Below, in pieces: positions 33,868 through 58,336 of a stretch of DNA of 64,000 nt. The DNA lies in contig CBDBNU010000002.1 in NCBI GenBank assembly GCA_965207845.1, forward strand, positions 720,323 to 784,322, given 5' to 3'. The notes under the pieces were generated by a model that made no database searches, was not told where the DNA came from, and saw nothing but the letters and a program-made list of their open reading frames with translations. The translations under genes were made by a program, and so were the position numbers. The first letter of the stretch is position 1, and every line of letters begins with the position of its first letter. This stretch comes from Dehalococcoidia bacterium. GTDB lineage: Bacteria; Chloroflexota; Dehalococcoidia; Lucifugimonadales; GCA-2712585.

Positions 33868-33911
33868 CTTGCCTCCTCTCCCGTCCTGGGAGAGGATTGA
33901 GGTGAGGGTGA
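33868..33911 (+). repeat. REP-like element, family A (copy 1)
   Basis: cttgcctcctctccc gtcc tgggagagg attgaggtgagggtga. Confidence 0.8.
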
Positions 33912-47114: not shown

Positions 47115-47870
47115 ATGGGAAACCCGGTAGTGCACTTCGAAATCGCGGGCCCGGATGGACCTGCTCTGCAGCAGTTCTATCGTGATCTGTTTGGATGGAA
47201 TATCGACGTGCTGGGCAAAGAGATGCTCAACTACGGACTGGTGCAGGCAAACGAAGGCGGCATCGGTGGCGGCCTGTTTCCTACACCCGACGATATGGAG
47301 CCTCGCAGCTACGTTACCTTCTATGTGCAGGTTGACGATCTTCAGGCAGCGCTGGATAAGCTGGCCGGAATGGGCGGGACTCCCATCATGCAACCCACCG
47401 AGATAGCCCCGGGCATGGGCTCGGTTGCCATGTTCGTAGACCCCGGCGGCAACACCATCGGGCTGTATTCGCTCCCCGCGGAATCGGACGTGGAGTCGTC
47501 CCCAAAGGGCGACGCTCCCCCGGTGGTGCACTTCGAAGTTGGGTCTAGCGACGGAGCCGCGCTTACCGAGTTCTACACCGGAATGTTCGGCTGGGAAGTG
47601 ATGCTTCATGAGGAGATGAACTACCGTCTTGTCCAGCAAGAGTCCGGCGGGATCGGCGGCGGCATCTTCGAGCACACGGAGGGTATGCCGCCCAATCATC
47701 CGTCCGTCGCCGTGATGGTCGACGACCTGCAAGCCTATCTTGACAGGGCTGTAACTCTGGGCGGCCAGATCATGATGCAGCCTACGGAAATCCCCGGCGG
47801 ATTTGGTTCCTTTGCCCTGTTCACTGACATCGCCGGCAACCGCATCTCGCTCTTCAAGAATCCCCGGTAA
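47115..47870 (+). CDS. VOC (glyoxalase/bleomycin-resistance/dioxygenase) family protein, two-domain
   Basis: Duplicated module VVHFEI(A/V)G...FY...FGW... ...PGG..IGL. GGAGGAAA RBS. Confidence 0.85.
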   Translation: MGNPVVHFEIAGPDGPALQQFYRDLFGWNIDVLGKEMLNYGLVQANEGGIGGGLFPTPDDMEPRSYVTFYVQVDDLQAALDKLAGMGGTPIMQPTEIAPGMGSVAMFVDPGGNTIGLYSLPAESDVESSPKGDAPPVVHFEVGSSDGAALTEFYTGMFGWEVMLHEEMNYRLVQQESGGIGGGIFEHTEGMPPNHPSVAVMVDDLQAYLDRAVTLGGQIMMQPTEIPGGFGSFALFTDIAGNRISLFKNPR

Positions 47871-47982: not shown

Positions 47983-49680
47983 CTACACCGTCGGCCGCTT
48001 GTCCTTCAACACGTCCGCAGCCCGCGCCGGGTACGGCAGCTCGTCCGGGTCCACCGGAATCTCGATCAGCGTCGGCCCGCCCGACGCCAACGCCTCCGAC
48101 ATGGCCTCCGTCAGTTCTCGTTCGTCCGACGCGTAGAACCCCTTGCCCCCAAACAGGTCCATCAGCTTGTCCAGCCGTGGGTTGGTGATATCCGCCTCGA
48201 TGTACCGCTCCCCGTAGAAGAACTTCTGGTACGCCTTCTCGGACCCCCACGAGTTGTTGTTCATCACAATCGCCACCACCGGAATGTTCCACCGCACCGC
48301 CGTCTCCATCTCCTGCACGTTCATCAGGAAACCCCCGTCGCCGTTGATGCTTATCACCGGCCTGTCGGGACACCCCATCTTCACCCCCAACGCCATCGGA
48401 TAGCTGATTCCGATGCACCCCAGGTCCAGCGGGCTGGTCAGGCTGTACGGACGATTGAAGTCCAGCCTGTCGTAGGCGTATCCCGAAGCCGCTCCCGCCT
48501 CGATAACCGTCAGCGCGTCAGCGGGATAGACTCGACGCAGCACGTGATAGACCTCCTGCGGCTTCAGTATCTTCCCGGCCCGAGGCCGTTCCCCATCCAG
48601 CCGATCTCGCCGCTGCCGCCGAAGCTTCGACGCCACGCCCAAGCGCGCCTCTCCGCCCGGCGGCGCTCCCAACTCCCCCACCAACTCCAACAGCGCCCGC
48701 GACGCCGCCCCCACGTCCCCCAGAATCCCCACCTCAACAGGATGATTCCTGCCAAGCTCCTCCTCGTCTATCTCCACCTGCACAATCTTCGCTTCCCGCG
48801 GTATGAACCTGTTGTCGTAGAACGTCGTGAAGTGCGATAGCCGCGTCCCCAGCGCCAGCACCACGTCCGCCTGCTGCACCAGTTCCGCCGCCTCCGGCGC
48901 CCCCGCCCGACCCAGCATCCCCACGTACAACCTCTCGTCGTTGGGCATCGAGTCCACCCGCCCGTAGGACGCCACCATCGGCGCGGCCAGCGCCTCCGCC
49001 AATGCGACGACCTCCTCGTGGGCTCGGCTCCATTTCACTCCCCCACCCACCACAATTACAGGAAACTTCGCGTCCCGCAACACCTCGGCCGCCCGACGCA
49101 GCAACGCCGGGTCTCCAGCCGATGCCTGCGCCTGACGCACTGGCCCCAGCATCCCCTCGTCCGCCTCCACCGCCGTCTCATTCTGAATGTCCCGCGGAAT
49201 GTCCACCACCACCGGCCCCATTTTCCCCGACTTCGCAACCCGAAACGCATGCAGCAGCGTGTCCGGTATCCGCCCCGCGTTCGGAGCCATCACCGACGCT
49301 TTCGCCACCGGACGAAACACCCCCACGTGGTCCACCTCCTGAAACGACCCGCGCCCCATGTGCTCCGTCGAAATCCCGCCAATCATCGCCACCATCGGCG
49401 CGTGGGTCACCTGCGCCCCCGCCACCGGCGTCACCAGGTTCGTCGCCCCAGGCCCGTTCGTCACCAGGCACACCCCCGGTTTGCCCGTCGCGTGGGCGTA
49501 CCCCAGCGCCATAAACCCCGCCCCCTGCTCGTGACGCGTCCCTACGTACTGAATGTCCTCCAACCCGTACATCGCGTCCATAATCTCCAGAAAAGCCGAG
49601 CCCACGACTCCGTAAACGTAGCGCACCCCCTGAGACCGCAGCACCTCCACCACCCACTGACCCGCCGACATCTTGACCAT
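47983..49680 (-). CDS. Thiamine-diphosphate-dependent enzyme (acetolactate-synthase-like large subunit family)
   Basis: Start at the ATG at 49680 (GGAGGGAGCAAAG upstream). ThDP motif GDGGFLMN-x22-NNN. N-terminal pyrimidine-binding domain ...GTRHEQGAGFMALGYA.... Confidence 0.85.
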   Translation of the reverse strand: MVKMSAGQWVVEVLRSQGVRYVYGVVGSAFLEIMDAMYGLEDIQYVGTRHEQGAGFMALGYAHATGKPGVCLVTNGPGATNLVTPVAGAQVTHAPMVAMIGGISTEHMGRGSFQEVDHVGVFRPVAKASVMAPNAGRIPDTLLHAFRVAKSGKMGPVVVDIPRDIQNETAVEADEGMLGPVRQAQASAGDPALLRRAAEVLRDAKFPVIVVGGGVKWSRAHEEVVALAEALAAPMVASYGRVDSMPNDERLYVGMLGRAGAPEAAELVQQADVVLALGTRLSHFTTFYDNRFIPREAKIVQVEIDEEELGRNHPVEVGILGDVGAASRALLELVGELGAPPGGEARLGVASKLRRQRRDRLDGERPRAGKILKPQEVYHVLRRVYPADALTVIEAGAASGYAYDRLDFNRPYSLTSPLDLGCIGISYPMALGVKMGCPDRPVISINGDGGFLMNVQEMETAVRWNIPVVAIVMNNNSWGSEKAYQKFFYGERYIEADITNPRLDKLMDLFGGKGFYASDERELTEAMSEALASGGPTLIEIPVDPDELPYPARAADVLKDKRPTV

Positions 49681-49822
49681 CTTTGCTCCCTCCATCACTC
49701 TTCGCTCTCTTGGTTCTACAACATACCGAGGGGAACCTCAAGAGGAAATCAAGAATCATCTGCATCGAGGCCGACTTTGGACTAGCCGCGCCAGCCCCAA
49801 CACCGCGGCACCATGAACCAGA

Positions 49823-52312
49823 TTACTCTTCTGGACTACAGCGCAGCAGGCCTGTTTTTCTTACCCAAATCTCCGGGAGTTCCTGCGCAATACAGCCCGT
49901 GAAATGATTCCCGTTTAGCCATAACGTCTCCAGCTTGGTAAGGCTGGCTAGTTCCGCAGGAATATCTCCACTTAGTTGGTTGCCCTGGAGCATCAATGTT
50001 GAAAGTTTCGTGAGGTTGCCAAGCTCCGCAGGTATCTCTCCCGTTAGCTGGTTATTGCCCAGATTCAATGTCACGAGCTCAGTCAGGTTTCCCAGCTCTG
50101 ACGGTATCTCCCCAGTCAGCCGATTCAAACGCAGGACCAATTGATCGAGATTGGTGAGATTGCCTAGCTCCGCAGGTATCTCTCCGGTCAATTCATTCTC
50201 TCGCAAAATCAGTCCAATTAGGCTGGAGAGGTTTCCTAATTCCGATGGAATGGGGCCTGCGAGAGCGTTCTCGGCGAGCTCCACCCCGGTAACCTGGCCC
50301 ATCGTGTTAGTAAACACCCCGTGCCATGCACCCAACGGCACGGCGCTGACCCAGTCTCTGTTGTTTACCCAATTCTCTCCCCCGGTGGCGTTGTAAAGCG
50401 CGACCAACGGGGGCAAGTCCGGCGAATCCTCTAGTACCCGGTCGATTAAGGGACTGCCGTGATATCGACGCCAGGCCGAGTCAAATTCCACTTCTCTTCC
50501 AGGTGGCACGTTGGAATTAAACGCATGAAATACGCTGTCGTGGTTTGGATTCTCAAAAATCAGTCCCTGCGCATGAAGATCTCTCATGGCCGCAGCCGCT
50601 GCCTCTGGTCCCAACGCCTCATACATTCCCAGCATAAACCTTTCGCCAAGCCTGTAATCGCAAATCCCTCCCCTGTAGGGATTTACATGTTCCCAGATGT
50701 TCTCCGCGCATCCCCCGGTGGATTCTAGTCCCTCTAACCGATCTTCCAGCTCTTCTCCGCCGGATTGGGCCTTAGTGTAGGCCTCCAGGAAATTTGCTGT
50801 TCCCTCCGTTAGCCATCTCGATCCTGCCTGAATATAGTAGTGGCCGAGTTCGTGAAAGAGCGTACCCACGGGAGGGCCCGTCTCCCGGTTTTCTACCAGA
50901 ATTATCGATGTCAAATAGCACGGATCCACGTTGCCCCCGCCCGCGCAAAACAAACGGTTCTCCCCACTGCCCGAAATCTCCCAGAATTCCGGCTCAACTA
51001 GAAGAACTATTACATCGCTTAGCGGCAACTCCGCCCCCATGAAGTCTTCCATTACTCGTATCCCATGCGCCAACGCCGACAGCGCATAATCGTCAGGAGG
51101 GAACGGAGTATGCCTGACCACGCTAATTCCCACGTCTCCCGACAAAGGGAGGGTAACGAACGCCGACGCTACATGGTTGGTCTCAATCAGGGCTTGTTGA
51201 AATTCGTCATCGGTATCGCCTATCGCGTGCAACAGCGCCGCTTCATCATCATCCAAACCGTCTTGGAACCATGGTTGACTGACAACCCGAGACAAGACTT
51301 CTGAATCTCCTTCGTACAAGCTCCAACCTGTGCTGGAGTCTTCATCGGGGCCAACTATATTTGCCGGCGGGCCTGACAGAGACCAAAGATACAATGATTC
51401 CAGCGCATACTCGTCTCTCTGTCGAAATGGCGACTCGACCACATGCCACGCAAATTCCAGGTTGCTTTCGGATAAATCTCGAACAGCCACCAGGGATTTG
51501 AGCTTTGCCTCTGTTATTCCGTCCCCAACCCACGAATATCCTAGCACTCGCTGGAACAAATCAGGGTCCACATACTGTATTTCTGCTAAGACTCCAATGG
51601 CCTCCAACTCAAGAACGGCTGGTTCGCTGTCCTCAATCCAGGGAACACTCATCAGCAACGCCGTAGACTCCTCATCAGTTACGGATATGTTCCAAAGCCC
51701 CTGCGCGGCATATTTCTCAATTTCTGTGACCCCGTCCGCCATCCACGGCAGCGCTTCCACTGCCTCCCGGCTCCCAGGCCCCGGCGTCGGCTCAGGAGTT
51801 GGTTCCGGCATTGGCATCGGCGTGGGTGCGGGCGTAGGCGAAGGCTCAGGCGTTGGCGCCACGGCAATGGAAGCCGTATGCTTTGGAGTAGGGGCGGGCG
51901 CTGCCTCCGGACTTGGCGTTTGCGTGGCTGTTGGTGCAGGCGCGGGCGTAGGGGTTGGCGTCGATACAGGCATCGGGGTGGCTTGCGACGAAGGGTCAGG
52001 CGTAGGTGTAAGTGTAGGTGTTGCCTGTGGAGTAGGCTCAGGCGTCGACTCGGACGGAGAAGCAGGTGTCGGCTCCGCCGTGGGCGGTGCCGTAGGTGCC
52101 GGAGTGGGCCCCGGGATTTGCTCCGGCATCTCCATCTGTATGGGAATTGGTGTCGAGGTCGATACTAGGTCTGAATTGGATGTGTCTCTCGGTACAACAG
52201 TACCTGTGGGTGGGAGATCATTCTCGCAGGCTGCAAATACAATCAATGCCAACAATTGCAACAAACAAACAACAACTATATGCGGAATACGCCTTCTCAT
52301 GCCAATTAACAT
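49823..52312 (-). CDS. Lipoprotein: Pro/Thr-rich linker + peptidase-MA-like (HExxH) core + C-terminal plant-type leucine-rich repeats (copy B, HExxH intact)
   Basis: Signal peptide plus lipobox (LIVFAAC). About 130 aa of PTPEP-type linker. TLFHELGHYY...WLTEGTANFLE (gluzincin-like). Then six or more 24-aa LRRs of the form LxxLxxLxLxxNxLTGEIPxELGN. Confidence 0.75.
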   Translation of the reverse strand: MLIGMRRRIPHIVVVCLLQLLALIVFAACENDLPPTGTVVPRDTSNSDLVSTSTPIPIQMEMPEQIPGPTPAPTAPPTAEPTPASPSESTPEPTPQATPTLTPTPDPSSQATPMPVSTPTPTPAPAPTATQTPSPEAAPAPTPKHTASIAVAPTPEPSPTPAPTPMPMPEPTPEPTPGPGSREAVEALPWMADGVTEIEKYAAQGLWNISVTDEESTALLMSVPWIEDSEPAVLELEAIGVLAEIQYVDPDLFQRVLGYSWVGDGITEAKLKSLVAVRDLSESNLEFAWHVVESPFRQRDEYALESLYLWSLSGPPANIVGPDEDSSTGWSLYEGDSEVLSRVVSQPWFQDGLDDDEAALLHAIGDTDDEFQQALIETNHVASAFVTLPLSGDVGISVVRHTPFPPDDYALSALAHGIRVMEDFMGAELPLSDVIVLLVEPEFWEISGSGENRLFCAGGGNVDPCYLTSIILVENRETGPPVGTLFHELGHYYIQAGSRWLTEGTANFLEAYTKAQSGGEELEDRLEGLESTGGCAENIWEHVNPYRGGICDYRLGERFMLGMYEALGPEAAAAAMRDLHAQGLIFENPNHDSVFHAFNSNVPPGREVEFDSAWRRYHGSPLIDRVLEDSPDLPPLVALYNATGGENWVNNRDWVSAVPLGAWHGVFTNTMGQVTGVELAENALAGPIPSELGNLSSLIGLILRENELTGEIPAELGNLTNLDQLVLRLNRLTGEIPSELGNLTELVTLNLGNNQLTGEIPAELGNLTKLSTLMLQGNQLSGDIPAELASLTKLETLWLNGNHFTGCIAQELPEIWVRKTGLLRCSPEE

Positions 52313-52364
52313 ACATCATCCACGTACAGTGAAAGAACCCCTCTCCCTCCCCCAAAGACCCTTC

Positions 52365-52901
52365 TTACAACGCCGGCGGCACCACTTCCGAACCCCTCAT
52401 CACCTCATCCCGCGTTAACAGCGGTACGTCATGCACAACGCTCGTCGCCGCGATTATCTCACCCGCCGGGCTCCCCCTGAAATCCAGACGCGTCGACGCC
52501 ACCGACACCGCAAGATCAATAGGCCACACCTGAATTCGACCCAACACGCGCACCACCTCCTGAAACGACCCTCTACCCATGTGTTCCGTCGAAATCTCGC
52601 CAATCATCGCCACCATCGGCGCGTGGGTCACCTGCGCCCCCGCCACCGGCGTCACCAGGTTCGTCGCCCCCGGCCTGTTCGTCACCAGGCACACCCCCGG
52701 CCTGCCGGTCGCGTGGGCGTACCCCAGCGCCATAAACCCCGCCCCCTGCTCGTGACGCGTCCCCACGTACTGAATGTCCTCCAACCCGTACATCGCGTCC
52801 ATAATCTCCAGAAACGCAGACCCCACGACCCCGTAAACGTAGCGCACCCCCTGAGACCGCAGCACCTCCACCACCCACTGACCCGCCGACATCTTAACCA
52901 T
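52365..52901 (-). pseudogene. Chimeric ORF created by tandem duplication: first 115 codons of the ThDP enzyme fused to the last about 63 codons of a PIN/VapC gene
   Basis: MVKMSAGQ...GRGSFQEV differs from the intact gene at 49680 at 3 of 115 residues. It is joined to VRVLGRIQVWPIDLAVS...VVPPAL, near-identical to 55472..55659. Junction at CCACC, 52553-52557. Confidence 0.75.
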
Positions 52902-53025
52902 CTTTGCTCTCCTTAACCTTGCCGTTTTCAGCCACGCCAAACCGGCTATTTCCCAAAATACCCTCGCCAAACGGACTTGCTGGGAGAGACTATGGATGAG
53001 GTGCCTTATTCGGAGCAACTAATGC

Positions 53026-55419
53026 CTATGAGCCTGCCTCGGCTTCTGTTGTGCATCGTGCCAAGCGCGATTTCTCGACCCATATTTCGGGAAGCTCTTC
53101 CGCAATGCAGCCAGTGAATTCGTTAACCCCAAGATCCAAGCTTCTGAGATTCACCAGATTGGCAAGCTCTGATGGTATCTCGCCGCTAAAGAAATTCCCC
53201 GAGACATCCAACTTCCTGAGCTTCACCAAGTTTCCCAGTTCGGCCGGTATCTCGCCGGTGAGGTCGTTACCCTGAAGTTCCAATATCTCCAATTTCACCA
53301 ATCGGCCGAACTGAGGAGGTATCTCCCCCACCAGACGATTTGCTCTCAAGTCCAAATCCAACAGGCTTGTGAGATTGCCCAACTCAGGGGGAATGGTTCC
53401 AGTCAATCTATTGCTCCCGAGACTCAATTTCGTTAAGTGGGCGAGGCCCCCCAATTCCGGCGGGATATCACCTGCAAGACCGCTGGCAAAGAGTTCTACC
53501 TGTACAGCCCTCCCAAAGGCATCCGTGGACACTCCGTACCAGGCCCCCGGTGGCGCGTCGCTGGCCCAGTTCCTGCTATATAGCCAGTTCTCTCCAAGAG
53601 TGGCGTCGTAGAGCGCTAAGAGCGGTGGCAAATCCGGTGAGTTTGCCCAGTCTTGGTCAGCAATAGGCCCGCCATGATACTGTCGATAGACAGCACGGAA
53701 TTCTTCCTCGTTCCCCTCCGGGACATTCTTCAAAAACGCATAGAAGATGTGGTCCTCACTATGGTCCAGGAACAAATACCTCTGACCATACAATTCCCGC
53801 AATCCCCCGGATACTGCCCCCGCTCCCAGGACAGAATTTATCCCCAGCAGGAATCGTTCCCCCAGCAATTGGTCGCAGTCCCTGCCGCCAAACAAGGAAA
53901 TGTGAAGCCAGAGACTCTCCCCACATACTCCGTCGGATTCGATGCTTGCCAATCGCTCTTCAAGTGATTCTCCACCCATTTCAGCTTCAACGTGCGCTTT
54001 CAGAAATCTCGCTGTCGCCGTATTGAGCCACCATGGTTCCGGAACTGCGTAGTATTCCCCAATCACCTCCAAGAGTGCCTCCCTCGAAGGTCCCTCTTCA
54101 GGATTCTCCGCCCACAAAATCGACCTTAGATAGCATTGGTCCAATCTGCTGCCGCTACATGAACTATCATTAAACGCCGCGTGTCTGGCATTCCAGAATT
54201 CCGGCTCGACTAGGAGGAGAATCACGTCGCCAAGGGGCAGCGGCACTTCCATAAATCCTTCCATCGCTCGCAACCCTTCATCTAGAGTCGCCAACGTGTC
54301 GTCGTCCGAGAGAATTGGAGTCTGACTGACAACGGCAAGTCCCACTGAGCCGGACAAGGGAAGCTCAATAGTAGTGGATACAACGTAGTGTTCCTCAACC
54401 AGCGCCATGGTAAATGCACCTAGACCCCTGCTTTCGTGAATTGCATATATCAGCGCCGCTTCTAGATCATCCAAACCATCCTCAAACCACGCCTGGTTGT
54501 TCAATTTGTCCAATAATTCAGCATCTTCCTGCTGGCCGGATAGATGCATGATATGCAGAGAATTCAAAGCATCCGCATCTCTTTGCATAAACGGCGCATC
54601 CATGAAAGGTGACCTCACTACATGCCAGGTCAATACCATGTCATACTGGGCAAGACGCTCAATACTACCTATCGCCCTGGACTCTGCCGCCGTAATCCCA
54701 TCCAGGGCCCACGAGAAGCCTAGAACTGCCTGCGCCAACTCCGGGTCATGGTTCCATAACCTTGGTATCGTGGCAATCACGGATAATTCACTATTCGAAA
54801 TCTCGGCATTGTCTACCCACGGAAAACTCAGTACTAATGATGTTAGTTCCATGTCGATATACCATAAGGCAGTTAGCGCCTCGACGGGATATGCTTCTTC
54901 AACGGTTATCCCATCTGCAACCCAGGGCAACGCATATACTGCAGCCGGACTCCCAGGTTCCGGGGTCGGCTCAGGAGTCGGTTCCGGCGTCGGCTCTGGC
55001 GTGGGCTCAGGTGTTGGTGCTGGTGCCGGCTCAGGCGTCGGCTCTGGCGTGGGCTCAGGTGTTGGTGCTGGTGCCGGCTCAGGCGTCGGCGTAGGCTCAG
55101 GAGTTGATTCCGGTGTCGGCTCCGGCGTAGGCTCAGGCGTAGGTGTCGGCGTTGATTCCGGTGTCGGCTCAGTCGTCGGCTCCGCCGTGGGCGGTGCCGT
55201 TGGTGCCGGCGTAGACTCCGGGGTTTGCTCCGGCATCTCCATCAGTATGGGAGATGGTGTCGAGGTCGATACTAGGTCTGAATTGGATGAGTCTCTCGGT
55301 ACAACAGTACCGGTGGGTGGGAGATCATTCTCGCAGGCTGCAAATACAATCAATGCCAACAATTGCAACAAACAAACAACAACTATATGCGGAATACGCC
55401 TTCTCATGCCAATTAACAT
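53026..55419 (-). CDS. Lipoprotein paralogue: Pro/Thr/Glu linker + degenerate peptidase-MA-like core + plant-type LRRs (copy A, HExxH lost)
   Basis: The first 80 aa or so are nearly identical to copy B, after which the two diverge strongly. The position equivalent to FHELGHYY reads LEVIGEYY, and WLTEGTA reads WLNTATA. C-terminal LRRs of the form NxLTG(T/E)IPPELGN. Confidence 0.75.
54989..55084 (-). repeat. Perfect 48-nt tandem duplication inside the Pro/Thr/Glu linker of copy A
   Basis: The unit gtcggctctggcgtgggctcaggtgttggtgctggtgccggctcaggc occurs twice (54989-55036 and 55037-55084). It encodes repeated [16 protein letters not shown]. Confidence 0.8.
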
Positions 55420-55471
55420 ACATCATCCACGTACAGTGAAAGAACCCCTCTCCCTCCCCCAAAGACCCTTC

Positions 55472-55839
55472 TTACAACGCCGGCGGCACCACCTCCGAAC
55501 CCCTCATCACCTCATCCCGCGTTAACAGCGGTACGTCATGCACAACGCTCGTCGCCGCGATGATCTCGTCCGCTGGATCTCCCCTGAAATCCAGACGCGT
55601 CGACGCCACCGACACCGCAAGATCAATAGGCCACACCTGAATTCGACCCAACACGCGCACCACCACCCGATCATCCAGGTCTAATTCCACCCGACCCAAC
55701 TCACCAGCTTCGCCAATTCCCACAAGACTATCGACGATACCGACCATCTCCTCCGAGACAATAGACTCCGTTCCTTCAGCCTCAATTCGTCCCTCAATGC
55801 GAATAGGAGGATGTGCGTGTCAAGATTGATCATGCGCAT
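55472..55839 (-). pseudogene. vapC: PIN-domain VapC toxin gene interrupted by a 1-nt frameshift
   Basis: The N-terminal frame from the ATG at 55839 or 55833 reads (MR)MINLDTHILLFALRDELRLKERSLLS...IVLWELAKLVS and stops at 55681-55683. The C-terminal frame is ORF 55472..55747 (...ELGRVELDLDD...PIDLAVSVASTRL...PADEIIAATSVVHDVPLLTRDE). The frames meet near 55700. Confidence 0.65.
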
Positions 55840-56332: not shown

Positions 56333-56374
56333 TCCCATCCAATATTTTTCCAATCCCATCCAATATTTTTCCAA
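56333..56374 (+). repeat. Perfect 21-bp tandem duplication in a G-poor non-coding region
   Basis: tcccatccaatatttttccaa occurs twice, at 56333-56353 and 56354-56374. Confidence 0.85.
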
Positions 56375-56622
56375 ACAATTCAATTCTCCATTTCACCCTT
56401 TCTCAGGCGTGAAATCCACCAAAAGCAACCCGAATTGTTTCCAAAACAATTTCCTCTCAGGCACGGACTCCGGGAATCAATTCCGAATCAACTACGCGCA
56501 ATCCCCCATTGATTTCGAGACAATCCCCACTACCCACCCATACCCCATTCCCCCTATAATGTCCCCAATCACCCCGTAGGGGCCTCCCCTTAACCTCTTC
56601 CCCCTCTATGAGGCAAGCCGTT

Positions 56623-56666
56623 CTTGCCTCCTCTCCCATCGTGGGAGAGGATTGAGGTGAGGGTGA
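56623..56666 (+). repeat. REP-like element, family A (copy 2)
   Basis: cttgcctcctctccc atcg tgggagagg attgaggtgagggtga. Confidence 0.8.
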
Positions 56667-56706: not shown

Positions 56707-57444
56707 ATGCGACTCAAAGGCAAAGTCGCCCTCATATCCGGCGCCGCCCGCGGCATGGGCGCCACCGAAGCCCGTCTCTTCGCCAGCGAAGGCGCCCAAG
56801 TCGTCCTCGGCGACGTCCTCCACCAGCAAGCCCAGGCCGTCGCCGACGAAATCAACAATTCCGGCGGCCAGGCCCTCTTTGTACCCCTCGACGTTACCAG
56901 CGAGGACAGCTGGCGCGAGGCCGTCAACGCCGCCGAGCAGCACTTCGGCAACATCAGCGTCCTCGTCAACAACGCGGGCATCCTCGTCCGCGAGGAACTC
57001 GAAGAGGGCACCGACCCCGGCTGGGACAGCACCATGAATGTCAACGCCAAGGGCGTCTACCTCGGCATGAAGCAGGCCGTCCCCTCCATGCTCCGGGCCG
57101 GCGCCGGCTCCATCATCAATATCTCCAGCATCTCCGGCATCGTCTCCCTCGGCTACCCCGCCTACAACGCCTCCAAGGGCGCCGTCCGCATCGTCACCAA
57201 GACCGTGGCCATGGAATATGCCGACAAAAACATCCGTGTGAACTCCATCCACCCCGGCGTCATCAACACGGACATGATGGGCGGCGACACCCGCGCCGCC
57301 GAGGATTGGGACCGTCTTATCCCCCTGGGCCGTTTTGCCGAACCCATCGAGGTCGCCTATGGCGCCCTCTTCCTCGCCTCCGACGAATCATCCTTCATGA
57401 CCGGCTCAGAACTCGTAATCGACGGCGGCTTCACCGCCCAATAA
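56707..57444 (+). CDS. SDR-family oxidoreductase (classical, glucose/3-oxoacyl-reductase-like)
   Basis: ISGAARGMG (TGxxxGxG variant), NNAG, SSISG, YNASK. AAAGGAG RBS. Confidence 0.9.
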   Translation: MRLKGKVALISGAARGMGATEARLFASEGAQVVLGDVLHQQAQAVADEINNSGGQALFVPLDVTSEDSWREAVNAAEQHFGNISVLVNNAGILVREELEEGTDPGWDSTMNVNAKGVYLGMKQAVPSMLRAGAGSIINISSISGIVSLGYPAYNASKGAVRIVTKTVAMEYADKNIRVNSIHPGVINTDMMGGDTRAAEDWDRLIPLGRFAEPIEVAYGALFLASDESSFMTGSELVIDGGFTAQ

Positions 57445-57457
57445 CCCATTCCCCTCT

Positions 57458-57501
57458 CTTGCCTCCTCTCCCGTCGTGGGAGAGGATTGAGGTGAGGGTG
57501 A
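57458..57501 (+). repeat. REP-like element, family A (copy 3)
   Basis: cttgcctcctctccc gtcg tgggagagg attgaggtgagggtga. Confidence 0.8.
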
Positions 57502-57514
57502 ATCCCTTCTTGTC

Positions 57515-57552
57515 TCTTCCCCCTCGATGGGGGAAGATTAAGATGGGGGTGA
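57515..57552 (+). repeat. REP-like element, family B (copy 3)
   Basis: tcttccccc tcga tgggggaaga ttaagatgggggtga, directly following a family A copy. Confidence 0.8.
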
Positions 57553-57595: not shown

Positions 57596-58336
57596 ATGCG
57601 ACTCCAAGACAAGGTAGCCATCATCACCGGCGCCGCCCGCGGCATGGGCGCCGCCGAAGCCCGTCTCTTCGCCAAAGAGGGCGCTAAGGTCGTCGTCGCC
57701 GACGTTCAGGTCGAAGACGGCCGGAGCGTCACCAACGAAATCAACGACGCCGGCGGCACGGCAGTCTTCGTGGAAATGGACGTCAGCAGCCAGGCCGACT
57801 GGGACCGCACCATCGACGCCGCCATCTCCAACTTCGGCAAGATCAACGTCCTCGTCAACAACGCCGGCATCATCGAGCGTGAAACCCTGGAGGAGACCTC
57901 CGAGGAGACCTGGGACGGCATCATGGCCGTCAACGCCAAGGGCGTCTTCCTCGGCACCAAGGCCGTCATTCCCCACATGAAGGCTGCTGGCGGCGGATCC
58001 ATCGTCAACATCTCCAGCATCTCCGGCATGATCTCCGTCGGCTACCCCGCCTACAACGCCTCCAAGGGCGCCATCCGCGTCTTCACCAAGAGCGCCGCGG
58101 TGGAATTCGCCCGCGACAACATTCGCGTCAATTCCATCCATCCCGGCACCATCTGGACCTCCATGTCCACCTACAAGCGGGCCTTCACCCGCGAGGAGAG
58201 GGCCCAGACCATCCCCATGAAGAGGGTCGCCGAGCCCATCGAAATCGCCTACCCCGCCCTCTTCCTAGCCTCCGACGAGTCCTCCTACATGACGGGCAGC
58301 GAAGTCGTCATCGATGGCGGCGTTACCGCGGAATAA
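57596..58336 (+). CDS. SDR-family oxidoreductase, tandem paralogue
   Basis: ITGAARGMG, NNAG, SSISG, YNASK. By eye roughly 60 percent identical to the upstream SDR. Confidence 0.9.
   Translation: MRLQDKVAIITGAARGMGAAEARLFAKEGAKVVVADVQVEDGRSVTNEINDAGGTAVFVEMDVSSQADWDRTIDAAISNFGKINVLVNNAGIIERETLEETSEETWDGIMAVNAKGVFLGTKAVIPHMKAAGGGSIVNISSISGMISVGYPAYNASKGAIRVFTKSAAVEFARDNIRVNSIHPGTIWTSMSTYKRAFTREERAQTIPMKRVAEPIEIAYPALFLASDESSYMTGSEVVIDGGVTAE

Follow-up and report, generated by a model that had tools for sequence, protein, structure and literature searches.

Near-identical ends and saturated middles in a tandem lipoprotein locus of a Dehalococcoidia bacterium: a possible pairing of two old alleles

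How can two neighbouring copies of a locus be nearly identical at both ends while the sequence between those ends has diverged to the point of saturation? We address this question for a tandem arrangement within a 64-kb window (contig CBDBNU010000002.1 of assembly GCA_965207845.1, a Dehalococcoidia bacterium), to which all coordinates below refer. Every gene of the region lies on the minus strand, and the gene assignments are backed by Pfam (Table 1). An antitoxin gene (vapB) and a toxin gene (vapC) are followed by a large lipoprotein gene (lipo2), a fusion open reading frame (ORF), a second lipoprotein gene (lipo1) and a gene for a thiamine diphosphate (ThDP) enzyme; the fusion ORF is made up of two relics, the 5' part of the ThDP gene (ThDP') and the 3' part of vapC ('vapC). 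A first-pass annotation had read this arrangement as a recent duplication with an exchanged middle. Our results favour, with moderate confidence, a replacement-type variable islet at which deeply diverged alleles recombined and two of them were captured in tandem.

The two units span 49332-52557 and 52553-55664 and stand head to tail, each consisting of a 'vapC 3' part, a lipoprotein gene and a ThDP 5' part; gapped BLASTN paired 49324-52563 with 52545-55670. The unit boundaries given previously (49334-52552 and 52553-55659) are thus refined, with GGTGG as the point of joining. These five nucleotides are common to ThDP at about codon 118 (49332-49336) and to vapC (55660-55664) and are the sole bases shared at the join. 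The upstream end of unit 2 corresponds to the last 62 codons of vapC (55472-55664), and the downstream end of unit 1 to the first 118 codons of ThDP (49332-49680). At the join, ThDP codon 118 is placed in frame with the last 62 vapC codons, which yields an ORF of 217 codons. Gene order and join match the outcome expected of a tandem duplication of a segment running from the 'vapC 3' part through the lipoprotein gene to the ThDP 5' part. We also note that the ThDP'::'vapC fusion ORF stays open behind the spacer of unit 2 (type B, see below), and that a chimeric peptide is possible.

Identity between the units is not uniform along their length. In 60-nt sliding windows along a global alignment, identity was 88-100% in the ThDP 5' part (49330-49690 vs. 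52551-52911), 35-72% and mostly 50-60% across the spacer and lipoprotein body (49690-52040 vs. 52911-55150), and 87-100% in the remaining block (52060-52557 vs. 55170-55664). The latter agrees with the earlier observation that the vapC 3' end, the intergenic region and some 80 lipoprotein codons are near-identical. The longest exact repeat measures 180 nt (52206-52385 and 55313-55492), the 52-nt intergenic region has no differences between the units, and the lipoprotein genes differ at 1 nt in codons 1-40 and at 10 nt in codons 41-80. Over the middle ~2.4 kb, DNA identity falls to ~55% and protein identity to 47%, with saturated synonymous sites. The remaining lipoprotein codons had been judged about half identical by eye; BLASTP gave 47% identity over 656 aligned positions, and 95% in the first 65 residues. 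The Pro/Thr linker of lipo2 is built of 12/48-nt tandem repeats (54965-55209). No third paralogue of the lipoprotein gene was found within the 64-kb window. A simple microhomology duplication is expected to leave copies that are identical over their whole length, and these copies are not; a second event or a heterologous partner is required.

The age of the ends can be approached through synonymous (dS) and non-synonymous (dN) divergence, estimated here by the Nei-Gojobori method. The ThDP' relic and the resident ThDP gene differ at 16 of 354 nt (95.5% DNA identity; dS 0.15, dN 0.015), with 12 synonymous and 4 non-synonymous nucleotide differences and three amino acid differences in 118 codons (K69R, G78R and G104E). 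An earlier count of three differing codons in 115 stands at the amino acid level, whereas the accompanying figure of ~97% identity does not hold for the DNA. The 'vapC relic gave similar values (dS 0.13, dN 0.022), with eight of its nine nucleotide differences falling within 7 codons, and its conserved PIN aspartate pair is altered (DPAD to SPAG). Lipoprotein codons 1-65 are closer still (dS 0.02, dN 0.03), and the lipoprotein body is saturated (proportion of synonymous differences, pS, 0.765; dN 0.445). For calibration, the ThDP gene of the window stands at dS 0.43-0.48 from those of L001 and L002, the contigs of the nearest sampled relatives, and lipo1 at dS 0.86-1.05 and dN 0.17-0.21 from its orthologues. 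On this scale, divergence in place since the relics split off would have produced a dS of ~0.3, not saturation. The duplication had been called recent. The relics are indeed far younger than the split between the bodies, but the ThDP' dS of 0.15 amounts to about a third of the distance to the nearest relatives, so the duplication is not very recent.

The same figures bear on the idea that lipo2 diverged in place after a recent duplication, evolving very fast once its catalytic site was lost. Only lipo2 has lost the HExxH motif and the third zinc ligand of this protein family, and it sits on a long branch, as such a history would have it. However, the body reaches a pS of 0.765 against a dS of 0.13-0.15 in the flanking relics, lipo2 is no closer to lipo1 (44%) than to two other family members (P0004, 50%; P0006, 48%), and the non-coding spacer behind it is of a different type, common to L002. 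We consider this explanation to have next to no probability. The first-pass annotation had likewise argued that the bodies did not arise by point mutation in place, and the saturated synonymous sites of the body, compared with dS 0.02-0.15 in the ends, together with the position of lipo2 outside the clade of lipo1, support that argument.

Polarising the 16 ThDP' differences with six outgroup lineages assigned 7 to the resident gene, all of them synonymous, and 5 to the relic; the other 4 lie at population-polymorphic sites. Three of the five relic-derived changes hit conserved residues (the replacements listed above) and two are synonymous, which fits neutral decay. The suggestion that the fragment evolves neutrally is compatible with the relic's own branch, but not with the comparison as a whole, where the differences are mostly synonymous and partly clustered; ThDP' is not a simple neutral clock. 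A pooled binomial test for too few non-synonymous ThDP' changes (P = 0.003), which seemingly favoured import, was discarded, the differences being clustered. Taken together, the private derived changes in ThDP' and the lost PIN aspartates fit a real, ageing duplication.

They are also relevant to whether an assembler might have stitched two co-occurring single-allele strains into a false tandem. The source is apparently a metagenome assembly, the relatives are all metagenome-assembled genomes (MAGs) or metagenome contigs, and the conserved flanks are shared, including the 180-nt exact repeat. Nonetheless, the adjacency of ThDP codon 118 and vapC shares only 5 nt, far under assembler k-mer or overlap length, and the join is in frame. 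The private derived changes of the relics (K69R, G78R and G104E in ThDP'; D to S and D to G in 'vapC) are absent from the resident copies and from the six outgroups, the contig is 917 kb long, and the window is free of N. An artefact of this kind thus appears quite unlikely.

Eight related contigs were recovered by protein searches and contig look-ups; one of them (P0159, 702 kb) was compared as a gene list, and L001, L002 and L118-L121 as DNA. L002 represents a single-copy state, with phd, an intact PIN gene, a lipoprotein gene and ThDP, and L001 carries a lipoprotein gene followed by ThDP. Protein identity to the window was 88% for vapC (L002) and 92.6% and 93.4% for ThDP (L002 and L001, respectively), and the lipoprotein core of their counterparts was 63-73% identical to lipo1 and 43-44% to lipo2. 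Neither the tandem nor the join was present in L001, L002 or L118-L121, whose DNA was read up to the upstream side of ThDP, and the P0159 gene list has no lipoprotein gene and no second ThDP fragment. A comparison of copy number and content across related genomes, as proposed earlier, hence shows a single-copy locus in L002, no tandem in the related contigs and a variable cargo.

The spacers between the lipoprotein stop codons and the ThDP starts had been described as unrelated, and their 52% identity is indeed at the level of shuffled sequence. Each has a counterpart elsewhere: a type-A spacer is common to unit 1 and L001 (71% identity) and a type-B spacer to unit 2 and L002 (76%), with 49-52% identity across types (best of 200 shuffles, 55%). 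The match between L002 (3675-4243) and the window (53118-52553) takes in the final 90 nt of the lipoprotein gene, crosses the spacer and continues into ThDP without interruption, at 85% identity. Protein tails follow the same division, ending in RCSPEE* in lipo1 and L001 and in EAEAGS* or EGEAGS* in lipo2 and L002. Both unit versions belong to this locus.

This finding weighs on two further explanations. One is that a distant paralogue at another site of the genome served as the template of a gene conversion that supplied the body of lipo2. Some Dehalococcoidia genomes do carry more than one family member (L097/L111 and L100/L117), and this genome was read over 64 kb only. However, the divergent block continues past the stop codon and across the entire spacer to where ThDP begins, its tail and spacer match L002, where they are contiguous with ThDP, and a paralogue elsewhere would not bring a ThDP-adjacent spacer; the window itself holds no further paralogue. 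We regard such a donor as very unlikely.

The other is an ancient tandem, dating back to when lipo1 and lipo2 separated, in which recurrent gene conversion preserved the similarity of the ends and the middles were free to diverge. Conversion leading to a mosaic pattern of divergence in tandem paralogues has been modelled (bioRxiv 10.1101/2025.10.29.685298), and several features of the locus would be consistent with it. Identity drops sharply from >90% to ~50%, and the ends are uneven, with 1 difference in 172 nt (intergenic region and codons 1-40) compared with 4.5-8% on either side. Differences are clustered (ThDP sites 72-87 and 327-330; vapC codons 27-33), and the 50 nt beside the join, where conversion would be least efficient, contain 5 of the 16 found in ThDP'. 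On the other hand, spacer B and the tail of lipo2 are homologous to the single-copy L002, and divergence in place would not converge on the sequence of a relative. An unequal crossover between the window copies would be expected to give lipo2 5', lipo1 3' and spacer A, the opposite of L002. The tandem and its join are absent from L001, L002 and L118-L121, none appears in the P0159 gene list, and non-functional relics would have had to persist while synonymous sites became saturated. Between the two processes named in the first-pass annotation, allele recombination and conversion of the ends, the evidence favours allele exchange; the conversion scenario is unlikely, albeit the strongest rival that we weighed.

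Exchange of alleles is easier to picture in view of what the relatives carry at this position. In five further contigs (L118-L121 and P0159), ThDP is 87-92% identical (87-93% across all relatives) and the flanks are syntenic, with an SDR-SDR pair upstream and AAA_33, AMP-binding and ECH genes downstream of ThDP; the order SDR-SDR...ThDP...AAA_33-AMP-binding is kept in L118, L121, L120 and P0159. From the vapC stop (or the SDR pair) to the ThDP start, the slot holds at least five alternative cargos in the eight related contigs: a lipoprotein gene (window, L001 and L002), a 959-aa N6_Mtase-like gene (L119), MNT plus PDDEXK_4 (L120 and P0159), unknown genes plus a HepT/MNT pair (L118), and almost nothing (L121). 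In all loci compared as DNA, homology to the window ends at the vapC stop (55473-55478; 55410 in L002) and returns at 49681-49693, the ThDP start. Because homology in relatives resumes there, the right edge of the divergent block (~49690 and 52911) is also an edge of the population-variable islet. The proposal of an exchangeable cassette site is well supported by these comparisons. Exposed structures would be encoded by the cargo of the window, L001 and L002, in the form of the lipoprotein; the other cargos are toxin-antitoxin, methyltransferase-like or nuclease-like genes.

Mosaicism is also seen inside lipo1. Its middle resembles L001 (72-88% identity) more than L002 (45-72%), whereas the leucine-rich repeat (LRR) part is closer to L002 (83-94%) than to L001 (60-83%). 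A recombination breakpoint analysis, as had been called for, placed maximum chi-square breakpoints in lipo1 near window position 50510 and, for L002, at the lipoprotein stop, with none of 500 permutations reaching the observed values. The mosaicism of lipo1 implies that the lipoprotein gene circulates as modules that recombine among lineages, and these modules are the N-terminus and linker, the helical repeats and peptidase domain, the LRR domain, and the tail and spacer. In a neighbour-joining tree of the conserved core, lipo2 falls on a long branch outside a clade of lipo1, two orthologues (P0002 and P0003) and nine further members (P0004-P0011 and P0122). Its core identity is 41-50% to every family member.

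We therefore return to allele recombination as our preferred explanation and outline how it could have proceeded. The vapBC-ThDP interval would be a replacement-type variable islet of a SAR202-like Dehalococcoidia lineage, in which a surface lipoprotein gene is one alternative cargo. This gene would be present in the population as deeply diverged modular alleles that are reshuffled by homologous recombination. One illegitimate join at a 5-nt microhomology, linking ThDP codon 118 to the last 62 vapC codons, would have created the tandem, and the stretch from about codon 80 to the ThDP start, which differs between the units, would represent two haplotypes of one locus, type A as in L001 and type B as in L002. 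Two routes can be envisaged. The locus may have been duplicated in place first; crossovers in the conserved ends would then have exchanged one copy for an incoming allele. Alternatively, the second haplotype may have entered in one event, either homology-facilitated illegitimate recombination or the Campbell-type integration of a fragment that had been circularised at GGTGG. Insertion in a single step is our own suggestion, and it may be that the two routes cannot be told apart.

Several observations weigh against this explanation, and it needs to be interpreted with corresponding caution. The ThDP' relic is nearest to the resident gene (16 differences, compared with 27-42 to six other lineages), which fits in-place duplication or import from a near relative; as its nearness is compatible with both origins, the order of events is not settled. 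The body of lipo2 has no close relative, the best match in a search of 5.8 billion proteins being 48% identical, so that the donor haplotype is inferred from tail and spacer only. Long-branch attraction could exaggerate the basal position of lipo2, given the loss of catalytic constraint. No divergence peak was seen at the ThDP 5' end across seven lineages, and the boundary signature of a replacement island is thus not clearly present. Most of the alternative cargos in the slot are of toxin-antitoxin or nuclease type rather than surface proteins, and the tandem is known from assembled sequence alone.

What do the two lipoprotein genes encode? Both copies have the same signal peptide and lipobox (…LALIVFAAC; LLPGC in L002), judged by eye from a basic n-region, a hydrophobic core and a terminal Cys, in line with the PROSITE-type lipobox rule. 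The signal peptide with its lipobox Cys is followed by a Pro/Thr linker, helical repeats, a central M1-like domain and a plant-type LRR domain. The LRR domain matches Pfam LRR_1, LRR_4, LRR_8 and LRR_14 and consists of 24-residue repeats (LxxLxLxxNxLxGxIPxxLGxL) with an N-terminal cap; its profile matches plant receptor ectodomains among the sequences of the Protein Data Bank (PDB), and Foldseek gave a target-normalised TM score of ~0.8 to SERK and BIR ectodomains. The isolated central domain (460 residues) had no Pfam match even at E values up to 10. It was modelled on its own, since the LRR domain dominated the fold search with the full-length protein. The AlphaFold model, built from 43 sequences, had a pLDDT of 88, and its 16 top Foldseek matches were all M1 peptidases, albeit weak ones (E 9e-5 to 1e-3, TM ~0.4, 12% identity); the best match of the motif-side half was PDB 6a8z (E 9e-5, TM ~0.4, 12% identity). 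From this model, the central domain appears to be a remote M1-like zinc-peptidase domain. Strict membership of M1 was rejected on the basis of no match to the family model, an x11 rather than x18 spacing, and no GAMEN (GxMEN) motif on reading the sequences.

Leaving lipo2 aside, 41 of 42 aligned members carry a motif HExxH-x11-E whose Glu lies in WLxEG; the exception (P0143) is a fragment that does not align there. In lipo1 the motif reads HELGH and WLTEG, with the Glu, conserved in the family, 12 residues past the second His. By analogy with the WLNEG motif of M1 enzymes, we take this Glu to be the third zinc ligand. In lipo2 the corresponding residues are EVIGE…WLNTA, with all four catalytic or zinc-binding positions replaced. 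It nevertheless keeps an open frame of 797 codons and more than 100 invariant structural positions of the family, which indicates that lipo2 has been under selection for most of its history. Judging from these features, lipo2 is most likely a binding-only pseudo-peptidase that retains its LRR domain. Both proteins are probably made, considering their same upstream region, same signal peptide and uninterrupted frames.

In our searches, the family was found almost only in Dehalococcoidia/Chloroflexota assemblies, and two members come from MAG series named in sponge-symbiont papers (L084, APA_bin_48; L103, SB0662_bin_5). The counts of N-terminal PWxxDG helical repeats and of LRR units vary among members, and modules are also duplicated within genes; P0004 (HELAHTYW… and HELGHYY…) and P0011 are among the members with two peptidase-like modules per polypeptide. 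Exact-sequence look-ups of lipo1, lipo2, the gene caller's version P0001, vapB and ThDP returned no identical match, and a scan of metagenome_contigs (JGI metagenomes and other public metagenome records) with ThDP returned relatives of at most 50% identity, none of them beside a lipoprotein gene.

It is conceivable that selection maintains the two genes together as one working unit, with an active surface peptidase-LRR lipoprotein and a dead, diverged partner, both produced from identical upstream regions and amounting to fixed heterozygosity for old alleles. The dead copy, possibly that of a sponge symbiont, might then act purely by binding, as a decoy or receptor for a host or phage. Surface exposure and function are inferred for both copies, and we consider the proposal doubtful. 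A programmed antigenic-variation cassette system of the pilE/pilS or vlsE type was rejected, there being two copies only, both complete ORFs with identical upstream regions and signal peptides. The pattern is also unlike the variable region of a diversity-generating retroelement (DGR), as differences affect ~45% of all positions and extend to the spacer; no search for a reverse transcriptase was made.

Table 1 Features of the tandem locus and its borders, listed from high to low coordinates in the 64-kb window, which is gene order on the minus strand.
Feature	Position	Strand	Remarks
Left edge of variable interval	56508..56570	.	Beyond the SDR gene pair, conservation with L118 and L121 ends here
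phd/vapB-type antitoxin gene, 74 aa	55820..56044	-	Pfam PhdYeFM_antitox, E 1.4e-6; first islet gene in this genome
vapC (PIN) toxin gene, disrupted	55472..55839	-	Two overlapping ORFs, each matching half of the PIN model
lipo2, 797 aa	53026..55419	-	Lipoprotein signal, Pro/Thr linker, peptidase-like domain without active site (EVIGE...WLNTA), plant-type LRR domain, tail ...EAEAGS*
ThDP'::'vapC fusion ORF	52365..53018	-	
Spacer type B, lipo2 stop to ThDP-fragment start	52902..53025	-	76% identity to L002 spacer; 49-52% to type A
ThDP' relic, ThDP enzyme codons 1-118, in fusion ORF	52553..52901	-	Pfam TPP_enzyme_N, E 2.5e-37
Duplication join, 5-nt GGTGG	52553..52557	-	Three-way alignment of junction, ThDP and vapC
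'vapC relic, last 62 vapC codons, downstream half of fusion ORF	52365..52557	-	
Unit 1 near-identical 5' block ('vapC relic, 52-nt intergenic region, lipoprotein codons 1-~80)	52060..52557	-	Unit 2 counterpart 55170-55664
lipo1, 829 aa	49823..52312	-	lipo2-like architecture, intact HELGH...WLTEG, tail ...RCSPEE*
Spacer type A, lipo1 stop to ThDP start	49681..49822	-	71% identity to L001 spacer; 51-52% to type B
Full-length ThDP enzyme gene, core gene bounding islet	47983..49698	-	Pfam TPP_enzyme_N, M and C

The remaining features of the region concern the borders of the islet. The antitoxin of the window is 96% identical at the amino acid level to its L002 homologue. The frame of vapC is broken by a 1-nt deletion near 55704 (55690-55720), where CTGGTG-AGTTGG stands against CTGGTGCAGCTGG in the intact 131-aa PIN gene of L002, and the vapC upstream of the tandem is either a pseudogene or the product of a sequencing error, beside an intact antitoxin gene. 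The window thus holds no intact VapBC pair, the antitoxin being present and the PIN gene split; the pair is undamaged in L002, L119 and L121. At the left edge, L118 (6558-6609) matches window 56570-56519 and L121 (5512-5575) matches 56570-56508. The G+C content of both lipoprotein genes (49800-52000 and 53000-55000) is 0.51-0.60, mostly 0.52-0.55 and up to 0.60 in the linker stretch, and that of the flanking core genes is higher, at 0.61-0.68. Distant homologues of the ThDP enzyme (53-72% identical) are labelled acetolactate synthase large subunit or sulfoacetaldehyde acetyltransferase by their sources, and a SAR202 label is also found among distant ThDP homologues.

The interval from the core boundary to vapB has an A+T-rich non-coding stretch (G+C 0.47) with a 21-nt tandem repeat (56333-56384; 2-2.3 copies). 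The two tandem SDR paralogues further upstream (56707-57444 and 57596-58336) share 74-77% DNA identity, and the pair is kept in L118, L121 and P0159, which makes this neighbouring duplication an old one. A repeat of ~45 nt that contains a palindrome (CCTCTCCCRTCGTGGGAGAGG followed by ATTGAGGTGAGGGTGA) occurs upstream of and between the SDR genes (56622-56666, 57457-57501 and 57508-57552), with one copy 23 kb away (33875-33911), none being expected by chance; it resembles a REP-like dispersed intergenic element. A scan for promoters and terminators gave no more sites than shuffled sequence. Downstream of ThDP, a further interval is variable (window 47115-47870; L118 11945-13412). The window, L121 and the end of L001 have a two-domain glyoxalase-like gene there, and L118, L119 and L120 have an SDR gene and small ORFs. 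The ThDP gene of L119 (3884-5582) was called as two pieces of 406 and 174 aa, suggesting a frameshift or sequencing error in a low-coverage contig.

The locus offers an unusually legible record of how a surface-protein locus may diversify in an uncultured lineage, in that the join, relics of both flanking genes and both haplotypes are preserved, and related contigs display single-copy states. It also brings to light an uncharacterised family that combines an M1-like zinc-peptidase and a plant-type LRR domain on a lipoprotein, with a central domain that has no Pfam model. If both copies are expressed, this natural active/inactive pair within one genome would provide a contrast between the contributions of the peptidase and of the LRR domain.

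How does the locus compare with known systems? Like M1/MA-clan peptidases such as the two-domain M1 peptidase of Deinococcus radiodurans (PDB 6a8z), the family has HExxH followed by a Glu in WLxEG, within a fold of ~250 residues around the motif that matches weakly. Unlike these, it is a family of lipoproteins in which the domain is combined with helical PWxxDG repeats at the N-terminus and a plant-type LRR domain at the C-terminus, and lipo2 is without the site.

In the babA/babB genes of Helicobacter and the emm-like genes of streptococci, conserved ends flank variable middles and exchange takes place by gene conversion. The present copies likewise share their 5' regions and signal peptides, differ strongly in the middle and appear to have recombined, but there is no sign of ongoing switching and the pair is known from one genome. 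Tandem duplication at short microhomologies, independent of RecA, has reportedly been described by Reams and Roth, and homology-facilitated illegitimate recombination during DNA uptake is said to have been described by de Vries and Wackernagel and by Prudhomme et al. The head-to-tail units and the novel join at a 5-nt microhomology resemble such events, and one side could have been anchored by homology. However, textbook products are identical copies or a foreign insert, whereas these copies are identical at their ends only, and no experiment is known to link this lineage to natural transformation.

Proteins with LRR domains in sponge symbionts have been discussed as eukaryote-like host-interaction factors (PMC6306507, PMC11706023). 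The present family likewise has plant-type LRR domains in Chloroflexota, and its link to sponges lies in the MAG series of two other members, not in the organism of the window.

In aquatic prokaryotes, replacement flexible genomic islands are swapped through homologous recombination within the core genes that flank them (Lopez-Perez et al. 2014, PMC4033161), and they show a peak of mostly synonymous substitutions at their boundary (PMC4033161). The islet described here similarly occupies the same position between core genes, with different or deeply diverged content and sharp edges, and its boundary differences are mostly synonymous (12 of 16 in ThDP'). It differs in its small size (~1.4-7 kb), in a cargo that is often of toxin-antitoxin or nuclease type, in the lack of a single-nucleotide polymorphism (SNP) peak at the ThDP boundary, and in that two versions are kept together instead of one replacing the other.

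The closest parallel in this last respect comes from pneumococci, where tandem pspC variants of different anchoring types, separated by IS1167, occur in one genome, BM6001 (PMC10383233); tandem variants at the polymorphic pspC locus are attributed to Iannelli et al. 2002 as cited in that paper. As in our window, two very different surface-protein variants stand side by side at a locus that is single, polymorphic and mosaic in most strains. Our tandem has no mobile element, its microhomology join left in-frame relics of both flanking genes, and it concerns another protein family in another phylum. Microhomology-mediated duplication, allele exchange at variable islets and pseudoenzymes are all well-known processes already, and the locus is a new and well-preserved example of them in a poorly known lineage.

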